NCBI GenBank assembly: GCA_951406725.2
Contig: OX597814.1
Location: 166,904,001 to 166,968,000, forward strand
Direction: 5' to 3'
Length of the DNA: 64,000 bases
From: Octopus vulgaris
Taxonomy: Eukaryota
The stretch's first letter is position 1. Each line of letters begins with the position of its first letter. Shown here piece after piece: positions 666 through 57,800 of the stretch. The notes under the pieces are model-generated. The model was not told the origin of the DNA. It saw only the letters and a program-made list of their open reading frames with translations, and searched no databases. A program made the translations under genes and the position numbers.

Positions 666-1070
666 GGCGATGAGCTGGCAAAAACGTTAACACGCCAGAC
701 GAAATGTCTATCGGTATTTCGTCTGCCACTACGTTCTGAGTTCAAATTCCGCCGAGGTCGACTTTGCCTTTCATCCTTTCGGGGTCGATTAAATAAGTAC
801 CAGTTACGCACTGGGGTCGATATAACCGACTTAACCCGTTTGTCTGTCCTTGTTTGTCCTCTCTGTGTGTAGCCCCTTGTGGAGTAATAAAGAAATAGGT
901 ATTTCGTCTGCCGTTACGTTCTGAGTTCAAATTTCGCCGAGGTCGACTTTGCCTTTCATCCTTTCGGGGTCGATTAAATAAGTACCAGTTACGCACTGGG
1001 GTCAATATAATCGACTTCATCTCTTTGTCTGTCCTTGTTTGTCCCCTCTATGTTTAGCAGTAAAGAAATA
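666..1070 (+). mobile_element. tRNA-derived Nin/Deu-domain SINE, full unit plus headless second unit, 14-bp TSD
   Basis: Head GGCGATGAGCTGGCA...GAGTTCAAATTCC (A/B boxes); Nin-like GTCGACTTTGCCTTTCATCCTTTCGGGGTCGAT; TSD AGATGATATAAAAG at 653-666 and 1071-1084. Confidence 0.85.
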
Positions 1071-1307
1071 AGATGATATAAAAGCTTACACATGCGCGCA
1101 CGCGCACAAATATGCACATATATACGATAGCCTTCTTTCAGTTTCTGTGTACGAAAGCTTTGGTCGGCCTGAGGCTATAATATATATATATATATATGAT
1201 TAATATATATATATATATATATATAATTAATCAAAGGACATACTAAGAATCACTGCTTTGCATGTTATAAGAAATAGCATATGTCGATGGTTTTATATAG
1301 CACTTCA

Positions 1308-1348
<41 letters not shown>

Positions 1349-1354
1349 AACAAA

Positions 1355-1566
1355 CACGGGGTTGAGGCAGAAAAGTTCAAGGCTTTAAGGGTATCATGAA
1401 AGGTTTGGCTGGAAGCCCAACCATCCGAGTTCTTTTACAGGGCTTAGAAAACTGAAGGACTATCGCAATAAGTGTGAATCTGAGAGGGGAATACGTTGAA
1501 TAAAATCAAAATTAACTGACCCTCTCGTATTTTCTTTTACCCAAAGGCAGGAACTTTTCAGCACCA

Positions 1567-1573
<7 letters not shown>
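1355..1573 (+). mobile_element. mariner-derived MITE
   Basis: Imperfect TIRs CACGGGGTTGAGGCAGAAAAGTTC / GAACTTTTCAGCACCACCTCGTG; interior resembles a mariner C-terminus (..NLRGEYVE*). Confidence 0.6.
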
Positions 1574-1628
<55 letters not shown>

Positions 1629-1651
1629 TTGTGTGTGTGTGTGTGTGTGTA

Positions 1652-2737
1652 TCTATATATATAAAATGTTTTGCCTCTCTGTCTGTTCTCAATGCATTCT
1701 CAAACGGCTCGACCAAACCAAGTCAAATTTTACATGGTAATAGTAACAGACCCCAAGAGTGTCGACATGTATTTTTTTCATTTGGATTAAAACAATACAA
1801 CATTGCCACTGGTTCGGTATTACATGCCAAAAGTGAAAGAATAAGATCTATATTGTAATGTGATATAATATTGTTTCACTTTTATTTCTTTCACTTTTAA
1901 TTCTAATGTGATAAGACTATGATATTGTTTCACTTTTATTCTTTCACTTTTAACTCCTGTTGACTAACATAACGAGCGGCTGGCAGTGTAACTCTTGACA
2001 AAAAGAATGAGGTATATAAAAATACACATTTACCGCTCAGTTACCAGTTAATAATTATCGCAGCAGTTGCAAATTTATCGTTAAATTAGCAGCTCATACA
2101 TGTGCTTCTATTTGGCTAATTTGCGTATATTTGGTTCACTTGTACTGCATACAAAAAATAATGACATACTACATACATACAGTTGCTTAAAATAATAGAT
2201 TACTGTATAATTTCTTCTATATCCATAAGTTTTGGTTTACAGTATTGAAAAACATATGCCACTTAAAAAAAGACGTAATCTCTCCAGAAACAACTATAAA
2301 GCAAGGAAAATTGTAGAAAACCGAAGGCGAGAGTCTCAAGAGAGAAAGGAGATGAGACTTTTTCAAGATCAACAAACGCATGCTGCAGCCCGTGAAATGG
2401 AGTATCAAGAGAGAAGTGAGATGAGATTTTCTCAAGATCAGCAAAGGCATGCTGCAATACGTTAGATGGAGTATCAATACGGAAGGGAGATGAGACTTTC
2501 CCAAGATCAGCAAATGCATGCTGCACGTCAGATAGAGTCTCAAGAGAGAAGGGAAATGAGACTTACCCAAGATCAGCAACCGCATCCTGCAGCACATCAA
2601 ATGGAGTCTCAACACAGAAGGGAGATGAGACTTTCCCAAGATCAGCACTTTCCCGTATCACCGATTTCAACATAACTGTAAAATAGATATACAAACTATG
2701 CCATTTTAATCCCGAGCAGCATCGGGTATCTCTGCTG
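1652..2737 (+). mobile_element. non-autonomous Helitron with 60-bp internal tandem repeats
   Basis: 5' TCTATATATATAAA; 3' hairpin CCCGA-GCAGCA-TCGGG then CTG (degenerate CTAG); about 5.5 copies of a 60-bp unit at 2325-2650 encoding ESQERxEMRLxQDQQxHAA. Confidence 0.7.
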
Positions 2738-2829
2738 AAACAAATCCTTCAATAAATTTGAAAATAAATGTATTTTAAGAACGGTTTATTAGCATTAATT
2801 GTTTTCTTTTCATAAAATATATTTTCGAA

Positions 2830-2908
2830 ACTTTGACCCTTGGGGATTTTGACCCTTGGGATTTTGACCCTTGGGATTTTGACCCCAGGGGATTATAACC
2901 TAAACCCA
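2830..2908. repeat. ~15-bp tandem repeats (GGGATTTTGACCCTT) ending ...TAACCTAAACCC, probably a DNA-transposon subterminal array
   Basis: 4-5 visible copies; the partner terminus was not found. Confidence 0.45.
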
Positions 2909-3378
2909 ATTACATACATACATACTTAGAAGGAGAGGAAAGGACGATAGCACTTCACTCTGTGCAACATCTTTCAATAGCATGCCATTTTATTCAAAGT
3001 TCTTGCAGTACGTCGTACAAAATGCTCGCCATGTCATCGGGCACCTATCTACTAAGATGACAAGAATCGACTGCTCAAATTTATGAATAAAAACATATGT
3101 AGCTCGGATTAAACTACTCCCAGTAATAATCATTTTATTATATTTATTTACCGCGTGTTATACGTGACTAACGTTATTACTGATATTGGTGTTGTGGAGT
3201 ACCTATTATGTTTAAATAATCGTTCTTAATTTTATAATGGAATGATAAAGTAGAAATATTATTTATTGATTAATTAACTAATTAATTCATCAATGTTCCC
3301 TCATTGTAGACCGCTATTCAATCGCATGCACAAAGCCACCGAGCTTATAACGACGACTGGCGTGATCCAAACTAATTG

Positions 3379-3403
3379 ATACATACATACATACATACAT
3401 ACA

Positions 3404-3435
<32 letters not shown>

Positions 3436-3551
3436 CACATACATACATACATGCATACATACATACGTACATACATACATATACACATACGTACATACAT
3501 ACATACATACATACATACGTACATAAATACATACACACACACATACATACA

Positions 3552-3583
<32 letters not shown>

Positions 3584-4067
3584 CACATACATACATACAT
3601 ACATACATATACACATACATACATACATACATACATACATACATACGTACATAAATACATATACACACACATACATACATACATACATACATACATACAT
3701 ACATACATACATACATACATACATACATAAGTATATATGAGCATGTCTAGGGATGCAACTATATGCATAAAAATACATACATAAAACAAAACATACAAAT
3801 CTGCACGTCTACATACATACATTCAAACAAAAATCCCCTGTTGATGTTGAAATTCCAATGAAGGAGCCTTAGATCTAGGTTAGAAACCGGCTTTTTCTCT
3901 ATTCGCAAGAAATCTTGAAATAAAACTGAATAATGGCATATACACATACATACATACATACATACATACATACATACATACATACATACATACATACATA
4001 CATACATACATGCATACATACATACATACATACATATATATACATACGTACATACATGCATGCATGC

Positions 4068-4106
<39 letters not shown>

Positions 4107-4456
4107 CATACATACGTACGTACATACATACATACGTACGTACGTACGTACATACATACATACATACGTACATGGATGCATGCATATATACATACATACA
4201 ATCATACGTACATACATACATACATACGTACGTACGTACATACGTACATACGTACGAACGTACGTACGTACGTACATACATACATACGTACATACATACA
4301 TACGTACGTACGTACATACGTACATACGTACGAACGTACGTACGTACATACGTACATACGTACGAACTTACGTACGTACATAGATACATACATGCATACA
4401 TACATACATACATACATACATACATACATACATACATACATACATACATACATACA
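3379..4456. repeat. (TACA)n/(TACG)n microsatellite blocks
   Basis: Directly visible; source of the MYVC/YIHT pseudo-ORFs. Confidence 0.95.
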
Positions 4457-5485
4457 TTATGGCTGCCCCCTCGTTATCGAGTATGGCCATTGCACGAAGC
4501 TTAACTGTTACTGGTGCTGTGATCGAATGTGACTTTGTAGCCCAGCTAAAGATCTACAATGTCTTGTACAAAATTGGCAACTAAGACATTTACTGGTAAT
4601 AGCCGGCTGTAGTTGTAACTGGGCTTCATGTACCTTTGCATGTCGTTTTAGTCCTCCTGCCGAATTACACTCTCTTCCACATGCCCGACAGATATGATTA
4701 GTATGGTGTGTTACCCCACCACCAGTGGCCAGGTTGTCACTCATCTGTCTCGTTTTATGACTACGAAGATGACTCATGAGTCCAGCTTTACTGAGGCAGG
4801 GTCTTGCACAGACATTGCATGTCAGAATCAAAGGAAGACCCTTCCCATCTGGAAGTGTAACAGCGATGCTCTTCCTGACATCCCTCCTTACTTTCTCATG
4901 TGTAACTCGAGATTTCTCAAACGTGACTGTCCCCTCATGCACAATCCTTCTCCACCTGCTACGATCAATAGCTATGCCTTCCTATGTGTCAGGAGAGATG
5001 CAAGCATCTCTTAAGGAAGCTTTCAGCAAGTCCTTATACCTCTTTTTTGGTTTATGTGGAGGTCGTTCTCCTTTAGCTAACTCTCCATAAAAGAGTTGAT
5101 TTGGCATCCTTGAATCCTTCATTCTGACCAGATGACCACTCCATCTGAGCCTTTGCTTTAACACAAGAGCTTCTATACTTACACACCGAGAGCCTTCGAG
5201 TATTTCAAGATCACTGATGCGGTCCTTCCACTTAATGCTATAGATCCGTCTGAGGCACATCTGATGGAAACGTTCCAGATGTTTTAGGTGGTATCAATAT
5301 GTGACCCACGTCTCGCAGGCATAGAGAAGAGAAGGGAGCACACATGCCTTGTACACCTTTATCTTTGTCTTTCTGCATATGTCTCGCCGACTCCAGAGGC
5401 GCTTTTCTAGCCTTCCGAAAGCAACACTTACTTTCCTAATTCTATATGGAACTTCATCATCCACATTGCCATATCTATTAATAGA
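4457..5485 (-). mobile_element. 5'-truncated RTE-clade LINE (RT C-terminal region plus three C2H2-like zinc fingers), inserted in (TACA)n
   Basis: ORF pieces 5294-5485, 4982-5260 and 4508-4942 are one frame broken by two stops. Motifs KVYKACVLPSLLYACETW, LRWSGHLVRM..RMP..LFYGEL, and CxxC..HxxxH three times. Confidence 0.9.
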
Positions 5486-8641: not shown

Positions 8642-10300
8642 CAGGGTGCGATGAATAAATTGTCGTCTAAATTACGCAAAGATGAAAATAACATAGACAT
8701 CTCATTTTAACAGATATATTTACCAAAATTACATTAAAATATCTTGAAATACTAAAGTGTATAGGCACAGGAGTGGCTGTGTGGTAAGTAGCTTGCTTAC
8801 CAACCACATGGTTCCGGGTTCAGTCCCACTGCGTGGCACCTTGGGCAAGTATCTTCTACTATAGCCTCGGGCCGACCAAAGCCTTGTGAGTGGATTTGGT
8901 AGACGGAAACTGAAAGAAGCCCGTCGTATATATGTATATGTATGTGTGTGTGTGTGTTTGCGTGTCTGTGTTTATCCCCCCCCCCAACATCGCTTGACAA
9001 CCGATACTGGTGTGTTTACGTCCCCGTAACTTAACACTTCAGCAAAAAGAGACCGATAGAATAAGTACTAGGCTTACAAAGAATAAGTCCTGGAGTCGAT
9101 TTGCTCGACTAAAAAAGGCGGTGCTCTAGCATGGTCGCAGTTAAATGACCGAAACAAGTAAAAGAGTAAAAGAGTTAAGAGTAAAAAGTAAATTTATTCA
9201 ATAAAATCGCCGTTGTCTTCAACCACACCCTCCAGACGACTTCGGAATCTTCTGCAACTATTTTGGACGCTCTCCTTAAGTTGGAGAATGCTGCAATAAT
9301 CCTTGCCTTCGGTTCATCTTTGGTGTTACAAGGAGTTTTGTTAGTCTCTTGCTCAACTGCATCCCACACATTATAATCAAGGGGGCTGCAGTCTGGGGTG
9401 TTAGGTGACCAGATGTTTAGGGTAATGTGGTCGCTGAAATTGTCTGACAGTCACGACTGGTTCTCCTGCTTGTGAGACATAGTGCAGAGTTCTGTTGCCA
9501 GACATAGGGTCTTCTAGCAGCCACCTTCTTGACCCAGAGAAGCATTGCCTTCTCCAGGAACTTGATGTAGGCCTCCGTGTTGAGTGTGAGGCAGTGTGGG
9601 AAGATGAACGGAGGGATAACGTTGCCATCACTAGTGATCATACAAAACACCATGATGTTGACTGGATGTTTGATTTTTATCTCTCTCGGTACATATTTTG
9701 GGGACACGGCAAGCCAACGGTTGTTCTGTGTTCAGCGTCTGATCCTGGCAGAAATTTTTCTCGTCTGAGAAAAACCAAAGCATGTTTGGTTCGAGGAGTT
9801 GCTTGAATTTGTTAAAAAGTTTTGTAGCGCGGTCTTTCCTTTTGTCTTTGATGTCCTAGATTAAAGGTTGGCTCATCTTGTATGAAGAATACCGAAAGTA
9901 TTCATGCACTATCTGTGTGATAAGAAACTCAGACATTCCCATGTCCCTAGTGATGGACCTAATTGTCTTGGAGGGATTGTTGTCAATCATGGCCTGGATC
10001 TCACCAAAAACTTGAGTTCTATATTATGAAAACGATCAGAGTTTTCCGATCTGCCATACCTTCATAATCACCATTAGACTTATCCAACATTTTCGAATCC
10101 TCTGCACTCTCCTCAGAATGACACCCAAACACCCTGAAATGTTCGTACTTGAGCTTCCGGCGCGAATGCCAAGCAGTACACAATTTCATTCCCAAATTTC
10201 TGACCCTACTATACTGTGTAGTCAACAAAATCAAAAACAAACAATGTGCATGCGCGAAATTAAAAATATAAAATGGCGACAATTTATCCATCGCACATTG
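8642..10300 (-). mobile_element. Tc1/mariner DNA transposon, maT (DD37D-like) type, decayed transposase, TIRs and TA TSD
   Basis: TIRs CAGGGTGCGATGAATAAATTGTCG / CGACAATTTATCCATCGCACATTG flanked by TA; fragments DEKNF, IMVFCMITSDG, WQQNSA, PDCSPLDYNVW. A SINE is inserted at 8764-9175. Confidence 0.85.
8764..9175 (+). mobile_element. tRNA-derived CORE-type SINE (octopus OR-like)
   Basis: Head GGCACAGGAGTGGCTGTGTGGTAAG...GGTTCAGTCCC, CORE-like CACCTTGGGCAAGT, tail (GAGTAAAA)n. Other copies: 5860-6065(-), 14610-14977(-), 15930-16275(-), 29169-29660(+), 41420-41500(+), 43850-44270(+), 45872-46277(-), 46385-46635(-), 46885-47862(-). Confidence 0.85.
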
Positions 10301-10353
10301 TATGTATGTATGTATGTATGTATGTATGTATGTATATGTGTATATATATATAT

Positions 10354-10901
10354 TGTGTCAGGTCACTTTCGAGTGCTACTGGAAACATGTAACCCAGTAC
10401 AACCTGTTGCATGGTTGGGTCGTCGGTGACTAAACCGGCAACCCCACCAAGCTTGCTTGGTGAGGAGGGTGTTTATTGGACACCCTGCGGGATGAAAAAC
10501 AAAACCCGTCAAAGGGCGGAGGAACTCTTGAGAGTCAACGGTCATCCAATAAATGTCTTAAGGCTGTATCATGTGCGGGGACAGAAATAATCGGACTGAA
10601 TACCTGATCGCGCAGTTAAACCATTGGGAGTGAAGGACTCCTAGCCTTTGTTAGGGCATCCTTCTATGAGAAGGTAGCTCAGGTAACTGGGATAACTCCG
10701 ATATAAAACCTGCGTGGTTACCGATGATGTTGACTTGTTCTTCTTTTCTGATTATGGCTGCTGTTGCTTAGTAAGTGGGATTGACTCAGTGCACAGTTTT
10801 TGCTCACTTAAAAAAAAATCTTCTTGCACAGGCATTGCACGATAACAACATTGATTAAGTTTCGTGCAATGGCCATACTCGATAACAAGGGGGCAGCCAC
10901 C
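10354..10901 (+). mobile_element. short non-coding retroelement: structured LINE-type 5' module plus RTE 3' tail
   Basis: The last ~44 nt match the 3' end of the RTE at 4460-4504 with 2 mismatches. The 5' part is homologous to the Dong 5'UTR at 27580-27758. Flanked by (TA)n. Confidence 0.8.
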
Positions 10902-25963: not shown

Positions 25964-26952
25964 CTGCATCTCAATTCTACTGTAATCTCTTTTCCCGCTT
26001 TCCTATAACTGTCTCATTTTCAATTTGTTGATTCTAGACAAATCCGTCCTTAGCTGGTTCAACTTTTTTTGCCCATTGCGGATTCATTGTCACTTCTATT
26101 ATTTCTTTCCTTGAACTTTACTGCTTCCACTACTACATTTGCTCCAGTGCGTCATAAAATATTTGTTTCAGTTATATTACTTGTTGGAACCACGGGTAAT
26201 ATGGCATTTACTTTTTGTGTTTCTTGTCTAAACACATTCCTATCTATATATCTTAAGTCTGGTGGCGTTTTCTCGGGATCATTGCATTTTTTCCAGAACT
26301 TTTTTCAAAGCAGTGTATTTTTTTCATCTAAACCTGCTACCTGTAACTTCCTAATTATTGTGTTTTCCTCGTCTGTATTAATTCTAATTCATCTGTGACA
26401 TCTTCCTCTAATTCTGTAACTCTACCAGTCTCTTCGCCTATTCTTCTAGTCCACTTTCCATTTTTCTTCTGATTTCCTCAATTTCAATTTCAGTTAACCA
26501 TTTATTTGCTCCGCATGATCTAACATGATCAGCTAACTTTTGTTCAGTGACCTCAGAAACACCTTTGTCCTCCCATATTTGCTTCATACTTCGCTCATAA
26601 ACTTTCCCCGTTGGTTCACTTTTAATGAACTCTCCATGACAATTTTATTCACCACCTTTTAACATTTCCTCTTATGTTCAGTCTGGTCCGTAGTTTGATG
26701 AGGACCTGCAGGAACTTGTTCAACGTTTCCATAGCTGCCTAATGAGAGACCTTCACCATCATTGGTTCCAGCTTCTATCTACATCATAATTTGTTTCAAT
26801 TGTATACATATTGTATACATCGTCTTCGGTTAATTATGGTTTTTCCTTCACTCAGTGTTTTTATCGAGGCAACATCTCAAGGAAGATTGTCGACCAAAAC
26901 TAAAGACTTCATCCTACACATATGATGATGTTATTCCCCCACCGGACATCTA

Positions 26953-27465
26953 CCGTAAATCCTCGAGTATAATCCGCATTTTCCCCCAAAATTTGAAGGT
27001 CAAAATCCCTAGTGCGTACTATATACGAGGTTAAAAATGAAAATTATTTTCTAAGCAATGTCTGAGTCTCTATTTGCTATCTGGCAATGTTTATTCAGAC
27101 GCATTTTGTGATGTCGGGCGCGAAAATACCTTCAGCTAAGCCTGAAAGCAATGAAGTCATAAAAGAATCATCCATAACTTGCAGTAAGCAACATTTATTA
27201 AACGTTATTACTGTTATTACTGTTATTTCTTTATTTTCTGCAAACAAAATGCACAAAAAAATCTACACGTTTGTATTATGTTATATGTACAATAATAATA
27301 AAGGACATTACCGTCTACATTTTTACAAACCAAGGATGTTATATAGACCTCCTTGACTCAAGTTAGAGAAGGGGTGCGTATTATACACAAGTTTTAGGTT
27401 TTTCAGAGGTACATCCTCCTAAAAATCACCTGCGTCAAGGGCGGACTATACTCGAGGATTTACGG
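26953..27465. mobile_element. Tc2/pogo-type MITE
   Basis: TIRs CCGTAAATCCTCGAGTATAATCCGC / GCGGACTATACTCGAGGATTTACGG; TA on the left, CA on the right. Confidence 0.8.
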
Positions 27466-27789
27466 CACTCGGAATTTTTTTTAATATTGGGAATTGGTTT
27501 TATTTTGGAGTTTTCCCTCTCTTAGAAAGGTCGCTGTTATCTCGGCTTTGCCAAATGGTAATCTACTTGCTCTTGTAGCAAAGAAAGACATTTTCTGTAG
27601 GGTGGCCGTTGACTTTATTCACCTTTCATTCACCCTTTGACAGGTTTTGTTTCTCACTTTGCAGGGTTTCCAACAAAAACCACCTTTCGCACCAAGTAAG
27701 CCTGGTAGCGTTGCTGACGGCCCGTCTATGCAACAGACTGTACAGGATTACAGGTTTCATCATCATCATCATCATCATCATCATTATTA

Positions 27790-27873
<84 letters not shown>

Positions 27874-27880
27874 ATATTAT

Positions 27881-28215
27881 TGAGTGAAAGAGCAATGCAT
27901 GCCATCAAAGTGACAATGGGGTACAAAGATACGAAGCCCGATATGCTCATCATGACTACCCGTCTGATAAGGGTATACCAAGCACATGCATCACAACCAT
28001 ATGTGTGCGACATGGTGATCTCATATCAAGATAAACAGCGCATGATCTTGCTGGTGGGGCCCAGTTAGAATTTTCTTCTGGTCGATTAACCCATCCCGCT
28101 CAAAAGGTCTCTGAATAAGGGTTGTTTAAGGATGTTGAGCGAAACACCCATGTTTCCAGAGGTGAATTATTCAAGCCCCAAAGAATCCTTCTCAACACAT
28201 GGCTATGATGCTCCA
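27881..28215 (-). mobile_element. TAA-associated ~560-bp element, partial copy
   Basis: Homologous to 30612-31166 and 57876-58435. Confidence 0.8.
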
Positions 28216-28249
28216 TTATCATTTGTATTCAAAAGTTATTACATGCTAA

Positions 28250-28640
28250 TTTCATTAGCAAAGATGGTATCCTGAAGTTTGGTGACCGCAAGTCTCCTCA
28301 AATCTTAAGAATATTTCATAGGATTTTTGCCAAATACTGAGTGGCACTTTTTCTGCAGGTTGACGAATGCGCGTCTCATTTCCACCATCCTTCAGACTTA
28401 AGAGCGTTGTCTTCCATATTCTTATCATTTATTATTTGACTACATCCCGATATTTCTAATTTTTCTGTTTTCTTGATTATACACTCTACCGTCATATGGA
28501 ATTGCAAAGTCAAGAATCTAAATGCTGTTTTTGTTTCTGTCCTGCACATCTAATCTCCTGTCTTGAATAGCATGTTTGGTCTCAATGTAGAAACCCCATT
28601 AAATTTTGTGTTCATACCACTTTTCTATCGTTTTAAATCC
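28250..28640 (-). pseudogene. decayed R4/Dong 3' fragment
   Basis: Reverse complement is similar to 16660-17080 (GATGGTGGAA.TGAGAC.C.CATT.GTC.ACCTGC). Confidence 0.55.
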
Positions 28641-29336
28641 ACCTACACAGTTATGCCTGCGTTTATACTGTTTTTGTGCCAACTTACAGCATTCATTTAT
28701 TATTATTTTCGTCTCTTTTTTCATACATTCTTCATTTGCTTGTGAGAAAATTTGAAACTATTATTGTTGTTGTTGTTGTTGTTGTACACGCTTAGAAGAA
28801 GTCTAAATATTGTAAATTTACGATGTACATATTGCAACGATGTACAGTAATAATCATAAATATACTCTCTAAATACTATAAACATGTTCATTCTATAAAT
28901 TACTTATATACACTCACAATATTGTAAATATGTGCACTACAAAATATTGAAAATATTTAGTGGTTCTGTGTTGGTTGTTGATGACAATGATATATCAATT
29001 GAGAGAAACAATGTCGATTAAATATACATTAATTAGATGAATAAATTTTATTCTTTGAAATACAGAACAACAGTCTGACGAACAATCGGTGATGCTTTTT
29101 ATTTACAAATATCATGCACGATTAAGTGCTGAACAGATCTGTCTGCAAAGTGTTAGGAAAGTGGGATAGGCGCAGGAGTGGCTGTGTGGTATGTAGCTTG
29201 CTTACCAACCACATGGTTCCGGGTTCAGTCCCACTGCGTGGCACCTTGGGCAAGTGTCTTCTGCTATAGCCTCGGGCCGACAAAAGCCTTGTGAGTGGAT
29301 TTGGTAGACGGAAACTGAAAGAAGCCTGTCGTATAT

Positions 29337-54119: not shown

Positions 54120-57100
54120 TTTTTTTTTCTTCTTTCAAATTTGCTTCCATTTCTTGCCGAGTGTCTTCCCGACTCCTAGGGCAAAGAAACTCATAGCATA
54201 CATTGGTAGGCCATTAAACCAAACTCAATAGTTCGTTCATTTTTTTTTTTTTTTTTTAAAGTTAAATTAAAATACATGAGCAGCAACAGTTCTCACATCA
54301 ACAATGCTCTTCTCAATACGTGTGATGTACCAGTTAAGACAACCTTTTGCACTTCTTGCAGGGATGGTAAGCCAGGGATCATTCTCATATAATTTTCGGT
54401 TCCCTTCTTGATCATTCCTAGTGCTCCTACGATCACTGGTATTGTAACCGCCTTGAGATGCCACATTTTCTCAATTTCAATGAGTAGGTCTTTATACTTT
54501 CTGAGCTTGTCAAACTCTTTCGCTGAGATATTATGATCACAGGGGATGCTCATGTCGATCAATAAGCAAACTTTATTGTTTTGGTCTTTCACAACAATAT
54601 CTGGTTTATTGGCCTTGATGGTTCGGTCTGTATGTACTGGAAAGTCCCACAGAATGGTTACATTTTCTCCTTCAGTTACAGCCTCAGGGTGGTGATTATA
54701 CCACTTGTCAGCAGTTTTGATATTGTAATGCCGACTTATTAGCCAGTGGAGATATTGGCCAACTCTGTCATGTCTTAATTTATACTCCACTGGTGCTAAG
54801 ACTTTACATCCAGAGATTAGGTGGTCCACTGTTTCAATCATGTCGTTGCAGAATCGGCATTTTGGGTCTGCTCCATTTTTCATCACATTGGCCTGGTAGT
54901 TCCGGGTTAATAGGCTTTGATCTTGAGCAGCCAGGATGAAACCTTCGCTCTCTGCTTTTAGCCCTGAGCTCCGTAGCCACTGATGGGTTTGCTTCTGGTC
55001 AACATCAGCTTGTTTGCTGCGGGTCACATATTTGCCGTGCAGAGGTTTCTCCTCCCACCTATCAGCCAATTGCTCGTGCGCTTTCTTCATTGCCATCATT
55101 TTCACCTTCTTTGCAACAATAGTTGCCGTACTTCCCTCGGGTTGTTCAGTTTGGGTATCCTGCACGAGATCAATAGCAAATTTTTTGCTTTCCTTTATGA
55201 TAGAATGAAGCTTCTTTCGTCTCTCGTGATTTTCCACGAGCTTTAGCATCCAGTCATTCGATATTTCGAGATATTTGGCCAGTCCAATTGTGGTTGTTTT
55301 ATAAGCTAGTTCAAATTGGATCAGGCCTCGACCTCCTTGGGCTCTGGGAAGGTAAAGGCGATCTACGTCTGCCTTTGGGTGGTGCATCCTATTACAACTC
55401 AGCAGCTTGCGTATTTTTCTATCTATATTCTTTACTTCACTCATATTCCAGTTCAACACATTGTAGCTATAAGTAACAACTGGAACTGCTAAGGAATTTA
55501 TAGCTAACACCTTGTTACGTGCATTTAGTTCAGATTTCAGGACTGCACGAACTCTCCTATAACATTCCTTCCTGATTTTTTCTTTCATGCTTGCATGCTG
55601 AATACCAGAGCCTTCATTTATCCCTAAATATTTGTATGTTTGTTCTTGCTCAAGCTCTCTTATGACTGTGTCAACATCTAACACGACTGAATTTGTGGTC
55701 TTCACTTTCCCTTTCTGGAAAGTGGCCTTGGCACACTTCTCAAGTCCAAACTCCATCCCGATGTCATCGCTGAATGCTTTCACGGTGTGCAATAGGCCTT
55801 CAAGTTCATTATTGTCTTTACCATAAAGTTTTAAGTCATCCATATAAAATAGATGGCTTATTTTTTTATTGGCAATTTTATACCCATACCCTGTTCTGTT
55901 TAATTCACTTGTAAGGGGTATTAGGGCTATGCAGAATATTAAAGGTGAAAGTGAGTCACCTTGAAAAATTCCACAGTTGATGTTTATATTTTCTGAGGCA
56001 AGTACTCCATTAGAGTGGTATAATTGGAGATTCGTATTCCACAACGACATATTGTGCTTCAGGAAGTTTGAAATCACAGGGGAAATTTTGAAGATGTCCA
56101 GCGATCTCAAGATCCATGGATGCGGTATACTGTCGAAGGCCTTTTTGTAGTCAATCCATGCGGTGCTGAGATTTCTGCGCTTGTTGTGACAGTTCTCAAG
56201 GATCATACGATTGATTAGCAGTTGATCTTTGCATCCGTAAGAGCCTCGGCGGCACCCTTTTTGTTCAATGGGGAAAATATCGTTCTTCTCCATGAATGCA
56301 TATGTTTTCTCCGCCAGGATAGATGTTAGGATTTTATACGTGGTGGATAGACAGGTTATAGGCCGATAGTTTTTTGGAAGGTTGGTTTCGTTATTCTTTG
56401 GGAGTAGGTAAGTAATGCCACTTGCTAACCATTCAGGTGTTTTCTTTGGGTCTCTCATAATTCCATTAAGCAGCTGAACTAGCTTACCGTGTGCGCATGG
56501 GAGCGATGCGAGCCAGAAATTCGGCACCCTATCTTTACCGGGGGATTTCCAATTATGGGCCTTCGTGAGTGCCTTTCTTAGGTCTGCTATTGTGATGTCT
56601 TCCCATGCTTGTTGTAAATTTTGGTAGGATCCTTCAGTTTGTATAATCCAGTCTGCATTTATGTTGTACGTCTTCTTGTCACTCCAAATCCTTTTCCAAA
56701 AGTTTTGAACTTCTTCCATGGGAGGGGGGTCTTTAACGGTTACTTTCTCCTTCCCTATTTCTCTGTAGAATTTTTTGGCATTGGATGTGAACAGCTTATT
56801 TTGCTTGTAAAACTTGTTTCTCTTCTCAAATCTTCGTATTCTTTGGGCTTTTGCTTGGACTTTTTGTTTCAGCGTTTCTTTTATTGATATCAGTTCTTCT
56901 CTTGGTGAGGATCCAAATTTTCACTTCATCTTTCTTCCTGTTCTGGATCTTACATCATTTCCACATATTAGTTCATTTAATATTGATATTTCCCCTCTCA
57001 TAAATTCAATCTCTTTTTCAATTTTACTTCTCCAGGTTTGATTTCTTCCCAGGTTTTGTTTTCTTTGTTTTTTCGGGGGCATACAGCTGGTTTCAATTGC

Positions 57101-57799
57101 CCTAGCAGAAGCGTAAATAATTCCATTTAACTCAGTAAAATCAGGTTTTAATTCTCGTATTATTTCATTTGTTACATAGTTGCCAATTTGGATTTGTTTT
57201 TTATTTTGGTTTGTATTTGAGAGTTTATGAAGTCGTTCTCTATCATTCATACTTGTATGTCTTACAACTTCAAGCGTATTCAGGATTTTCTGCCTCATTT
57301 CTGCCATAGACTCTCTGTGTTCTTCAGCAAATGCGAGATCTTCAGTTACTGTTGTTTTTTTCGTTTTCCTGGCTATCTTTAACAGGTACAATAGAATTTC
57401 TTGTATCTTCAGGCCTTTGCGTACTTTGGTCAGATGGCAGTCTTTCAATTAAGCCTCGTGGCGGGCTATACTGTTCATCTGATTCTTCATTTCCTTTGTG
57501 TCTTATATTTATGTCATTTTCCGTTGCATGCTTGATCGCGCTTATTTCACTGTCTGTGAGTCTGTTATTTCTAAGGATATCCCTCCTCACATTTGCTAAT
57601 TTGTTCTCGTCCAAATAGGGCCTACTGTCTTGATTCCGTGTTCTCCATATACTGTAAGAGTTTGCGGTGTGTCTCTCTTGAGATGGCCTACCTAATGCAT
57701 AGTAATAAGCGTATATTACTTCTTTATACTCTTCTCGGGTCCATTTGTTCCGCTTACATTTTTCTTTCTGTGGTGGTTGTGGTGGTGAACTTGGAGGGC

Positions 57800-57800
<1 letters not shown>
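54120..57800 (-). mobile_element. R4/Dong-clade non-LTR retrotransposon, 5'-truncated, near-intact, inserted in (TAA)n
   Basis: Single long ORF with one TGA (56921-56923) and one frameshift (~57355). 3'UTR hairpin TTGCC..GAGT..ACTC GGCAA at 54154-54184. TAA tracts on both sides. Confidence 0.93.
54293..56719 (-). CDS. reverse transcriptase plus CCHC knuckle plus restriction-like endonuclease (R4/Dong ORF, main portion)
   Basis: NYRPITCL, IDYKKAFDS, GIFQGDSLSP, YMDDLK, YKYLG, CRFC..ETVDHLISGC, RHD, KPDIV..LIDMSIP, K..KY; catalytic motifs intact. The frame stays open upstream to the TGA at 56921. Confidence 0.93.
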   Translation of the reverse strand: MEEVQNFWKRIWSDKKTYNINADWIIQTEGSYQNLQQAWEDITIADLRKALTKAHNWKSPGKDRVPNFWLASLPCAHGKLVQLLNGIMRDPKKTPEWLASGITYLLPKNNETNLPKNYRPITCLSTTYKILTSILAEKTYAFMEKNDIFPIEQKGCRRGSYGCKDQLLINRMILENCHNKRRNLSTAWIDYKKAFDSIPHPWILRSLDIFKISPVISNFLKHNMSLWNTNLQLYHSNGVLASENININCGIFQGDSLSPLIFCIALIPLTSELNRTGYGYKIANKKISHLFYMDDLKLYGKDNNELEGLLHTVKAFSDDIGMEFGLEKCAKATFQKGKVKTTNSVVLDVDTVIRELEQEQTYKYLGINEGSGIQHASMKEKIRKECYRRVRAVLKSELNARNKVLAINSLAVPVVTYSYNVLNWNMSEVKNIDRKIRKLLSCNRMHHPKADVDRLYLPRAQGGRGLIQFELAYKTTTIGLAKYLEISNDWMLKLVENHERRKKLHSIIKESKKFAIDLVQDTQTEQPEGSTATIVAKKVKMMAMKKAHEQLADRWEEKPLHGKYVTRSKQADVDQKQTHQWLRSSGLKAESEGFILAAQDQSLLTRNYQANVMKNGADPKCRFCNDMIETVDHLISGCKVLAPVEYKLRHDRVGQYLHWLISRHYNIKTADKWYNHHPEAVTEGENVTILWDFPVHTDRTIKANKPDIVVKDQNNKVCLLIDMSIPCDHNISAKEFDKLRKYKDLLIEIEKMWHLKAVTIPVIVGALGMIKKGTENYMRMIPGLPSLQEVQKVVLTGTSHVLRRALLM

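Follow-up and report, generated by a model that had tools for sequence, protein, structure and literature searches.

RTE and R4/Dong retrotransposons of the octopus have in common a 5' RNA module that is predicted to fold like a flavivirus xrRNA

Introduction

In a segment of the Octopus vulgaris genome (GenBank assembly GCA_951406725.2, contig OX597814.1, forward-strand positions 166,904,001 to 166,968,000), which at its full length of 64,000 nt we call the window, an RTE-type element and an R4/Dong element carry a similar stretch near their 5' ends. An initial annotation read this stretch as a structured RNA module that had passed between LINE clades and that served self-cleavage, capping or cap-independent translation. 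The common ancestor of APE- and RLE-type LINEs is remote, and the locus raises the question of what such an RNA does at the 5' end of both and how both came to carry it. We find that the first ~58 nt bear the hallmarks of a flavivirus subclass-1a xrRNA, a fold predicted here from sequence comparison.

Results

The module and its neighbors in the window

The plus-strand copy at 10381-10559 aligns with the minus-strand copy at 27759-27583 with a local score of 144, where the best of 500 dinucleotide shuffles reached 46, and blastn gives 70.5% identity over 146 nt (E 7e-16). The homology first noted for 10382-10559(+) and 27758-27583(-) is thus borne out. The shared module of ~180 nt stands as annotated but its start does not: the proposed 10377 is ~20 nt late, the element beginning at 10356, and because these 5' ~20 nt had been left out the xrRNA-type fold was missed. 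The elements concerned are the following.

10356..10901, plus strand: one copy of family A, a non-autonomous element of RTE type and ~545 bp, with ends fixed across copies
27583..27759, minus strand: decayed module copy in an R4/Dong 5'UTR, 5'-truncated, running from L3 onward (alignment)
26000..26700, minus strand: decayed R4/Dong ORF start (translation; 150 scored relatives in the host genome), which we take to be a Myb-like region
26953..27465, unstranded: MITE with terminal inverted repeats (inverted 25-nt match, 96%), inserted in the Dong 5'UTR

The family A copy is flanked by (ATGT)n/(AT)n. A first look at the host genome gave 2137 candidates for this family, and the 40 that were scored are 95-100% identical; the 5' 195 nt share 85% identity with autonomous RTEs. 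The minus-strand module copy sits after (AAT)n/(GAT)n and ahead of the decayed R4/Dong ORF, and is without close relatives, its best other match being 76%. Directly upstream of this Dong copy lies the 3' end of another Dong (27870-28750, minus strand), and the (AAT)n between the two points to nested insertion into the same target repeat. A near-complete R4/Dong with an 875-aa RT frame occupies 54293-57800 (minus strand), while one stop and one frameshift interrupt the frames upstream; it begins right after (AAT)n without the module and is thus either 5'-truncated or of another family. Just upstream of the family A copy is a decayed transposase (9181-10300, minus strand), presumably mariner-like from its translation. 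Two other abundant short repeat families, each with many copies, lie at 638-1070 and 8754-9180.

Element families that carry the module

The proposal of a portable, structured module common to RTE and R4/Dong holds across a wide set of loci. The module stands at the head of 19 of 30 loci of autonomous RTEs (the young APE-RT families RTE-I and RTE-II), in 20 of 25 loci of the family Dong-Y and in 25 of 29 loci on other contigs. The last group comes from a metagenome scan with a pattern of domain B, the 3' domain of the module; its 25 true homologues fall into five families (F1-F5), and four chance matches were dropped. Within the host genome, the non-autonomous families A, B and C are also headed by the module. 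Twelve Dong-Y loci begin at profile position 4 or earlier, and in seven of the 20 that bear the module collinear tblastn matches to the RT of the window's Dong follow downstream, within the length of flank covered. In a second family, Dong-X (25 loci, L180-L204), domain B and a published downstream domain are kept and domain A is replaced by an AT-rich leader, which indicates that the domains are separable. Among the best 30 Dong loci, four have the module in the UTR, the window's own included. Because RTE, Dong and outside families all carry it, the module is not a simple Dong chimera. One further locus considered as a Dong UTR (L068) was rejected, being a short element in its own right that lies next to a Dong. 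At the 5' end of one Dong-Y (L365, 1100-1483) the module is tandemly duplicated, the upstream copy being internally deleted.

Assignment to the RTE clade (L152, L154, RTE-I, RTE-II) is based on a single ORF of ~1,050-1,150 aa with APE followed by RT and a Pfam match for the APE. Both L152 and L154 run on into APE-RT frames, and the relatives of the L154 protein are single APE-RT proteins of ~1,060 aa, the named ones among them being from lancelet, fish, bird, snail, sea urchin, shrimp and octopod; several are named 'craniofacial development protein 2-like', a name that we take to be linked to RTE. In L431 a module at 768-960 accompanies an unbroken 1123-aa frame with a C-terminal zinc finger. 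This locus (768-4740, on C16) is a young RTE-II copy with a full module, and several further 1123-aa frames occur in the host genome. The window copy, Dong-X and Dong-Y were placed in R4/Dong by translations, collinear RT matches and AAT-rich flanks; we take the clade to be marked by the lack of an APE, a Myb-like N terminus, RT, a C-terminal restriction-like nuclease and an (AAT)n target.

All 30 of the best loci of other APE-LINE families (PF03372) are without the module and Dong-X is without domain A, so the module is not required for all such elements. Many unbroken APE-RT frames of 1132-1149 aa (L121-L150 and others) have 5' ends without it, and some of these frames stand in tandem arrays, about 5.3-5.9 kb apart (e.g. 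C47, C50, C30). Pattern scans of viral contigs returned 0 and 12 loci and those of prokaryote genomes 120; none of these 132 matches the module profile, and they were therefore used as controls. A scan of the viral contigs for RTE proteins found none.

The first ~58 nt are predicted to form a subclass-1a xrRNA fold

Subclass-1a xrRNAs are described as a three-way junction in which one C separates P2 from P3, together with a base triple (U.A-U), a PK1 of 1-2 bp with a G-C pair and a PK2 of 2-7 bp followed by P4 (accessible passages of PMC8374639, PMC8571300, PMC7527734 and PMC7603331), with P2 variable and P1 and P3 fixed in length (same part of PMC7527734). In the window copy every one of the defining features can be placed in the right order and spacing, P4 as a candidate helix. 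All lie on the plus strand.

10356..10413: domain A, predicted subclass-1a xrRNA (descriptor, pair counts, family table, simulation)
10359-63/10402-06: P1
10364-67/10372-75: P2
10376: single junction C between P2 and P3
10377-82/10394-99: P3
G10357-C10400: PK1
U10358.A10378-U10398: base triple
10386-92/10407-13: PK2, 7 bp

The bases on which the fold depends are constant across families. All 10 families with an intact 5' end have G3 and its PK1 partner C, the junction C, and U4 with the A-U pair, which are the bases of the U.A-U triple, the contact itself being carried over from ZIKV numbering; the junction C occurs in 11 of 11 families. PK1 is paired in 18 of 20 copies and lacking in F1, a single decayed copy. 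A parse scored by pairing only places the tertiary-contact bases correctly in nine of 11 families, and the two misses are single decayed copies. The base after the junction C varies (A, C or U across families); its counterpart in ZIKV is unpaired, according to the available part of PMC7603331. The outside families were picked by their domain-B pattern, so that their domain A is unselected.

P2 keeps its pairing at lengths between 10 and 24 nt and the lengths of P1 and P3 do not change, the pattern described for subclass-1a xrRNAs; PK2 spans 4-9 bp per family with four double-sided types in its 4-bp core. Taken together, the first four P2 and four PK2 pairs show nine double-sided, no one-sided and one broken type; none of 32,000 family-tree simulations with matched change counts equals this result (averages about 1 and 12), for which the PK2 registers of F1, F4 and F5 were fixed by eye, and mis-anchoring of P2 in three families leaves only seven double-sided with one one-sided and eight broken types. 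In an unadjusted alignment of 20 copies, 84.4% of cells are paired (0/500 shuffles) and nine pairs have a double-sided change (19/500). P1, P2 and P3 are paired in 96%, 97% and 92.5% of cells there; P1 and P3 are nearly invariant and hence offer almost no covariation of their own.

A strict descriptor of the fold matches once in both strands of the window (128 kb), at 10357 with a 7-bp PK2, against none in 3 Mb of Markov sequence, none in the 132 control loci and one in 20,000 shuffles of the segment; it was written after the sequence had been seen, so these counts are backgrounds rather than a blind test. Old copies often fail it, matches being found in 2/16 for Dong-Y, 5/25 for family B (at the element start) and 2/7 for RTE-I. 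The MFE fold of 10356..10413 includes P1-P3, the pairing probabilities of P1 and P3 in the window copy being only ~0.3 under a pseudoknot-free model. RNAalifold recovers P2, P3, P5 and P7, misses P1 and prefers a 5'-to-3' pairing without double-sided changes. A crude ring count gives 15-16 nt, as in the subclass-1a ring, in four of 11 families and 17-22 nt in seven. We consider domain A quite likely to resist Xrn1 in some degree.

Covariation in domain B

The remainder of the module is on the plus strand as well.

10414..10431: P4 hairpin, directly after PK2 (10413/14-17 with 10427-30/31; pair counts)
10432..10551: domain B (covariation, 13 families)
10445-51/10456-62: P5 (84/91 cells paired, four double-sided types, null 0/287)
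10474-80/10545-51: long-range helix, 6-7-bp core (74/91 paired, eight types, null 1/291)
10487-91/10505-09: P7, closing a conserved 13-nt A-rich loop (three double-sided types, null 0/386)
10524-27/10532-35: P8, covarying by inspection
10467-71/10481-85: possible P6, well paired and non-significant

P4 is paired in 63 of 63 cells with one-sided changes only, which is non-significant against the null. Several of these helices had been proposed by eye, and covariation sorted them. The helix 10445-51/10456-62 (P5) is supported. So is the 6-7-bp core of the '15-bp helix'. For a long-range pairing of 10418-23 with 10538-43, 70 of 78 cells are paired but double-sided changes are absent (null 117/358); the P4 loop may pair with 10538-43. 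A short helix around 10406-13 fails (36/52 paired, no double-sided change) and clashes with P1 and PK2, its two drawn versions being, by eye, in different registers, and a CCC(T)/(A)GGG helix is paired in 42/52 without covariation. Across the module as a whole, P2, PK2, P5, P7 and the long-range helix lie above the tree-based nulls.

An asymmetric purine-rich loop precedes P8 (10517-10540), with Watson-Crick pairs in its place in family F3; to our eye it looks like one strand of a kink-turn or one half of the core of a hammerhead. The 5'UTRs of two RTEs, 601 and 880 nt long, contain 10 and 16 upstream AUGs, and on that account the role of domain B is likely to be internal ribosome entry or protein binding. 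The cap-independent translation first suggested is a plausible model for the 3' domain.

Rfam and ribozyme searches

Across the window Rfam gives no match at gathering. On the module itself, the weak match that pointed us to xrRNAs is Flavivirus_SLIV (RF01415) at 10352-10416 (21.5 bits, E 0.27), which begins upstream of the start first annotated. The best scores of this model are 21.5 bits for the window copy and 27.1 for L032, against a gathering threshold of 54.5, and domain A is accordingly described as built like an xrRNA and not as a member of the Rfam family. The model missed seven of eight module loci and an intact RTE-II, and its scan of the host genome gave no matches among the 64 of 84,788 candidates that were scored.

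No ribozyme family is among the Rfam matches at E<=10 on the module loci, and by inspection neither the HDV-like nor the hammerhead layout fits. HDV-like ribozymes are nested double pseudoknots whose P3/L3 core lies between P2 and the 3' strand of P1 and whose catalytic C is in J4/2; only 0 or 12 nt are available where that core belongs. Hammerheads have a core with a general-base G, three stems and a cleavage triplet; here a C replaces the G, stem I is lacking and the motif is absent in F3. Twister, twister-sister, pistol and hatchet give no covariance-model match at gathering or E<=10, though variants that the models do not capture may have escaped. The proposed self-cleavage or capping role thus finds no counterpart among these families.

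The element boundary lies near the predicted halt site

Where does the RNA begin? Column conservation sets in at +2, where G3 is +3, in three families: A, with 48 distinct flanks, B, with 23, and F3, with five. In F4, with eight flanks, it does so at -2 to 0. Xrn1 is reported to halt two positions before PK1 (accessible part of PMC13161572) or 5-6 nt before P1 (that of PMC5760640); these sites correspond to about -1 to +1 in module numbering, and the DNA boundary of the element lies within ~3 nt of them. Reverse transcriptase gets through xrRNA rings from the 3' side, according to the same part of PMC5760640.

We consider it on balance probable, as a model, that an xrRNA-type ring lets host exonucleases set and protect the 5' end of the element RNA. 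Elements inserted in microsatellites would owe their transcription to host promoters further upstream; once the transcript had lost its cap or been cut upstream, an exonuclease (Xrn1 or Xrn2) would degrade it as far as the ring and stop there. Read-through host transcripts would so be trimmed to the element start and the uncapped RNA protected, in place of a ribozyme. The element's reverse transcriptase would pass the ring from the 3' side and copy to that end, giving uniform full-length insertions, and domain B, the downstream published domain or both would recruit ribosomes internally or bind the ORF protein. Internal recruitment is proposed since scanning would be impeded both by the ring and by the 10-16 upstream AUGs. 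Several points weigh against an exonuclease-set end: an internal promoter would likewise fix a 5' end; the Rfam score is below cut-off, old copies often fail the descriptor and the ring count can be read either way; there is next to no variation in P1 and P3, whose in-silico pairing is only ~0.3; and Dong-X manages without domain A, and 30 loci of other APE-LINE families without the module.

Discussion

Other accounts of the module

The structural evidence also fits a genuine xrRNA that acts as a shield only, in an element with an internal promoter and its own cap, the ring protecting the RNA after decapping. Many LINEs have internal promoters (accessible text of PMC8501958), and the conserved single-stranded motifs of domain B could act in DNA. 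The 5' strand must thread the ring, however, and an RNA with 10-16 upstream AUGs is a poor capped, scanned template; the agreement between boundary and halt site would moreover be coincidence, and we regard this account as fairly unlikely. It is distinctly unlikely, in our estimate, that the module serves the ORF protein as a signal for binding or for 5' integration, its xrRNA likeness a convergence without nuclease resistance. Such a signal would explain why non-autonomous derivatives keep the whole module, R2 5'UTRs have been proposed to promote top-strand cleavage (PMC12222951), and the Rfam xrRNA score is indeed sub-threshold; but two unrelated proteins, of RTE and R4, would have to bind it, and all five tertiary-contact bases needed for Xrn1 resistance are invariant.

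One unpaired domain-B motif resembles, as we see it, half a hammerhead core, and conserved unpaired motifs of this kind could belong to a new self-cleaving or capping ribozyme, in domain A, B or both, that cuts at the 5' junction. HDV-like ribozymes are predicted at RTE and R4 5' ends (PMC5786205, in a passage citing Ruminski 2011), and twister variants occur in an RTE (available part of PMC8501958). Against this stand the lack of any family match at E<=10 and of space for the HDV-like P3/L3 core, a hammerhead-like stretch that has neither general-base G nor stem I and forms ordinary pairs in F3, and a domain A that already accounts for the 5' end; we hold a new ribozyme to be very unlikely. 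The idea of a DNA-level promoter, or of plain shared ancestry with no conserved RNA structure, draws on the high sequence conservation and on the regulator binding suggested for the neighboring domain in the accessible part of PMC5786205. It is largely refuted, and to our mind extremely improbable, given that P2, PK2, P5, P7 and the long-range helix have more compensatory changes than the tree-based nulls yield and that insertions in P2 stay paired.

Probable capture of the module across clades

In domain B, Dong-X and Dong-Y share 82-91% identity with the host-genome families A, RTE-I and RTE-II, against 68-82% with the outside families F1-F5; sequence identity between families is 62-91%. The Dong-RTE identity of 82-91% is hard to square with inheritance from a remote ancestor and suggests capture within the lineage. 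We think it likely, from these identities, that RTEs of the same genome were the source from which Dong families took the module; the tree of the module has weak resolution (66/92) and is unrooted.

Relation to known xrRNAs and 5' ends

By published features, the module shares with ZIKV xrRNA1 and MVEV xrRNA2 (RF01415) the P1-P3 junction, the single C, the U.A-U triple, PK1 and a variable P2, and with flavivirus subclass 1a also an L3-S4 PK2, here of 4-9 bp, with a candidate P4 after it; its 5' and junction bases recur in the Rfam Flavivirus_SLIV alignment. The settings differ: flavivirus xrRNAs lie in the viral 3'UTR and in tandem, whereas the module is single and opens retrotransposons that reside in chromosomes, with a long UTR and an ORF behind it. 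With the HDV-like and twister ribozymes at R2, R4 and RTE 5' ends (Ruminski 2011, as cited in PMC5786205; PMC8501958) it has in common the place and likely the job of freeing the element RNA from a host co-transcript and protecting it, but no catalytic core fits and the end would come from a host exonuclease instead of self-cleavage. The R2 5'UTR may also give exonuclease resistance (PMC12222951).

The fold is known and the setting apparently undescribed. A 2021 review states, in its available part, that xrRNAs have been characterized in viruses only and treats xrRNAs of eukaryotic genomes as an open question (PMC8374639). Our search of the openly accessible literature, by titles and abstracts, returned viral or engineered cases and no natural retrotransposon xrRNA; the accessible part of PMC12397905 has no relevant passage on one. 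We advance tentatively, at a little under even probability, the wider proposal that animal non-LTR elements use a functional flavivirus-type xrRNA through which host exonucleases define their 5' ends, one that can move between the RTE and R4 clades and that may have common ancestry with the flavivirus subclass-1a xrRNAs by way of exchange between retrotransposons and RNA viruses.

If functional, the module would be a rare case of a virus-type nuclease knot outside viruses. An exonuclease-set end, if true, would give LINEs a third route to a 5' end beside internal promoters and self-cleaving ribozymes, account for the uniformity of full-length 5' ends and prompt one to ask whether these elements and flavivirus xrRNAs are kin. 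The candidate is concrete and spans several families; its chromosomal copies number in the thousands, and it is present in young elements whose ORFs are intact. The prediction is that same-strand host transcripts reading through a copy leave a stable decay fragment. Such modules could also supply natural, non-viral 5' stabilizers for RNA-templated insertion, a process whose efficiency is limited by the stability of the 5' end (PMC12222951).

The downstream motif and the family A tail

Three further features lie 3' of the module.

10644..10711, plus strand: published RTE 5'UTR domain (Ceph-domain 3' half), matched by eye to supplement alignments in the accessible part of PMC5786205
27490..27560, minus strand: the Dong UTR's own copy of the published domain, decayed (9/2000 shuffles)
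10835..10901, plus strand: 3' tail of family A, RTE-like by eye only

A second shared motif had been described at 10650-10710 and 27540-27495. The sharing is real (9/2000 shuffles), and 10644..10711 is similar in RTE-I (0/2000 shuffles) and in two Dong copies (5 and 9 of 2000). The motif itself is not new: it is the conserved RTE 5'UTR domain known from RTE, R4-1_ADi and Ingi-3_AC, for which regulator binding has been suggested, and a 5'UTR piece common to RTE and R4 has thereby already been reported (available part of PMC5786205). This domain lies ~90 nt downstream of the module; the upstream ~195 nt and RNA structure are absent from that part of the paper.

Family A had been called 'RTE-tailed'. 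The likeness of its tail to the end of an intact RTE-II is non-significant (297/2000 shuffles) and blastn finds no match between the tail and RTE-I/II 3' ends, but the link to RTE stands through the 85% identity at the 5' end. Family A resembles the bipartite non-autonomous RTEs Bov-A, RTESINE and RTE-N (accessible text of PMC5786205) in joining a LINE 5' end to a short tail with no ORF and in having no apparent tRNA-like head, but differs in that no partner for its tail was found; an autonomous partner of the family was sought without success. A longer variant of family A (L032, L052, L019, L044, L049) has ~100 extra nt before the tail, which in L052 read as a decayed zinc finger, and this variant may lead to the autonomous partner.
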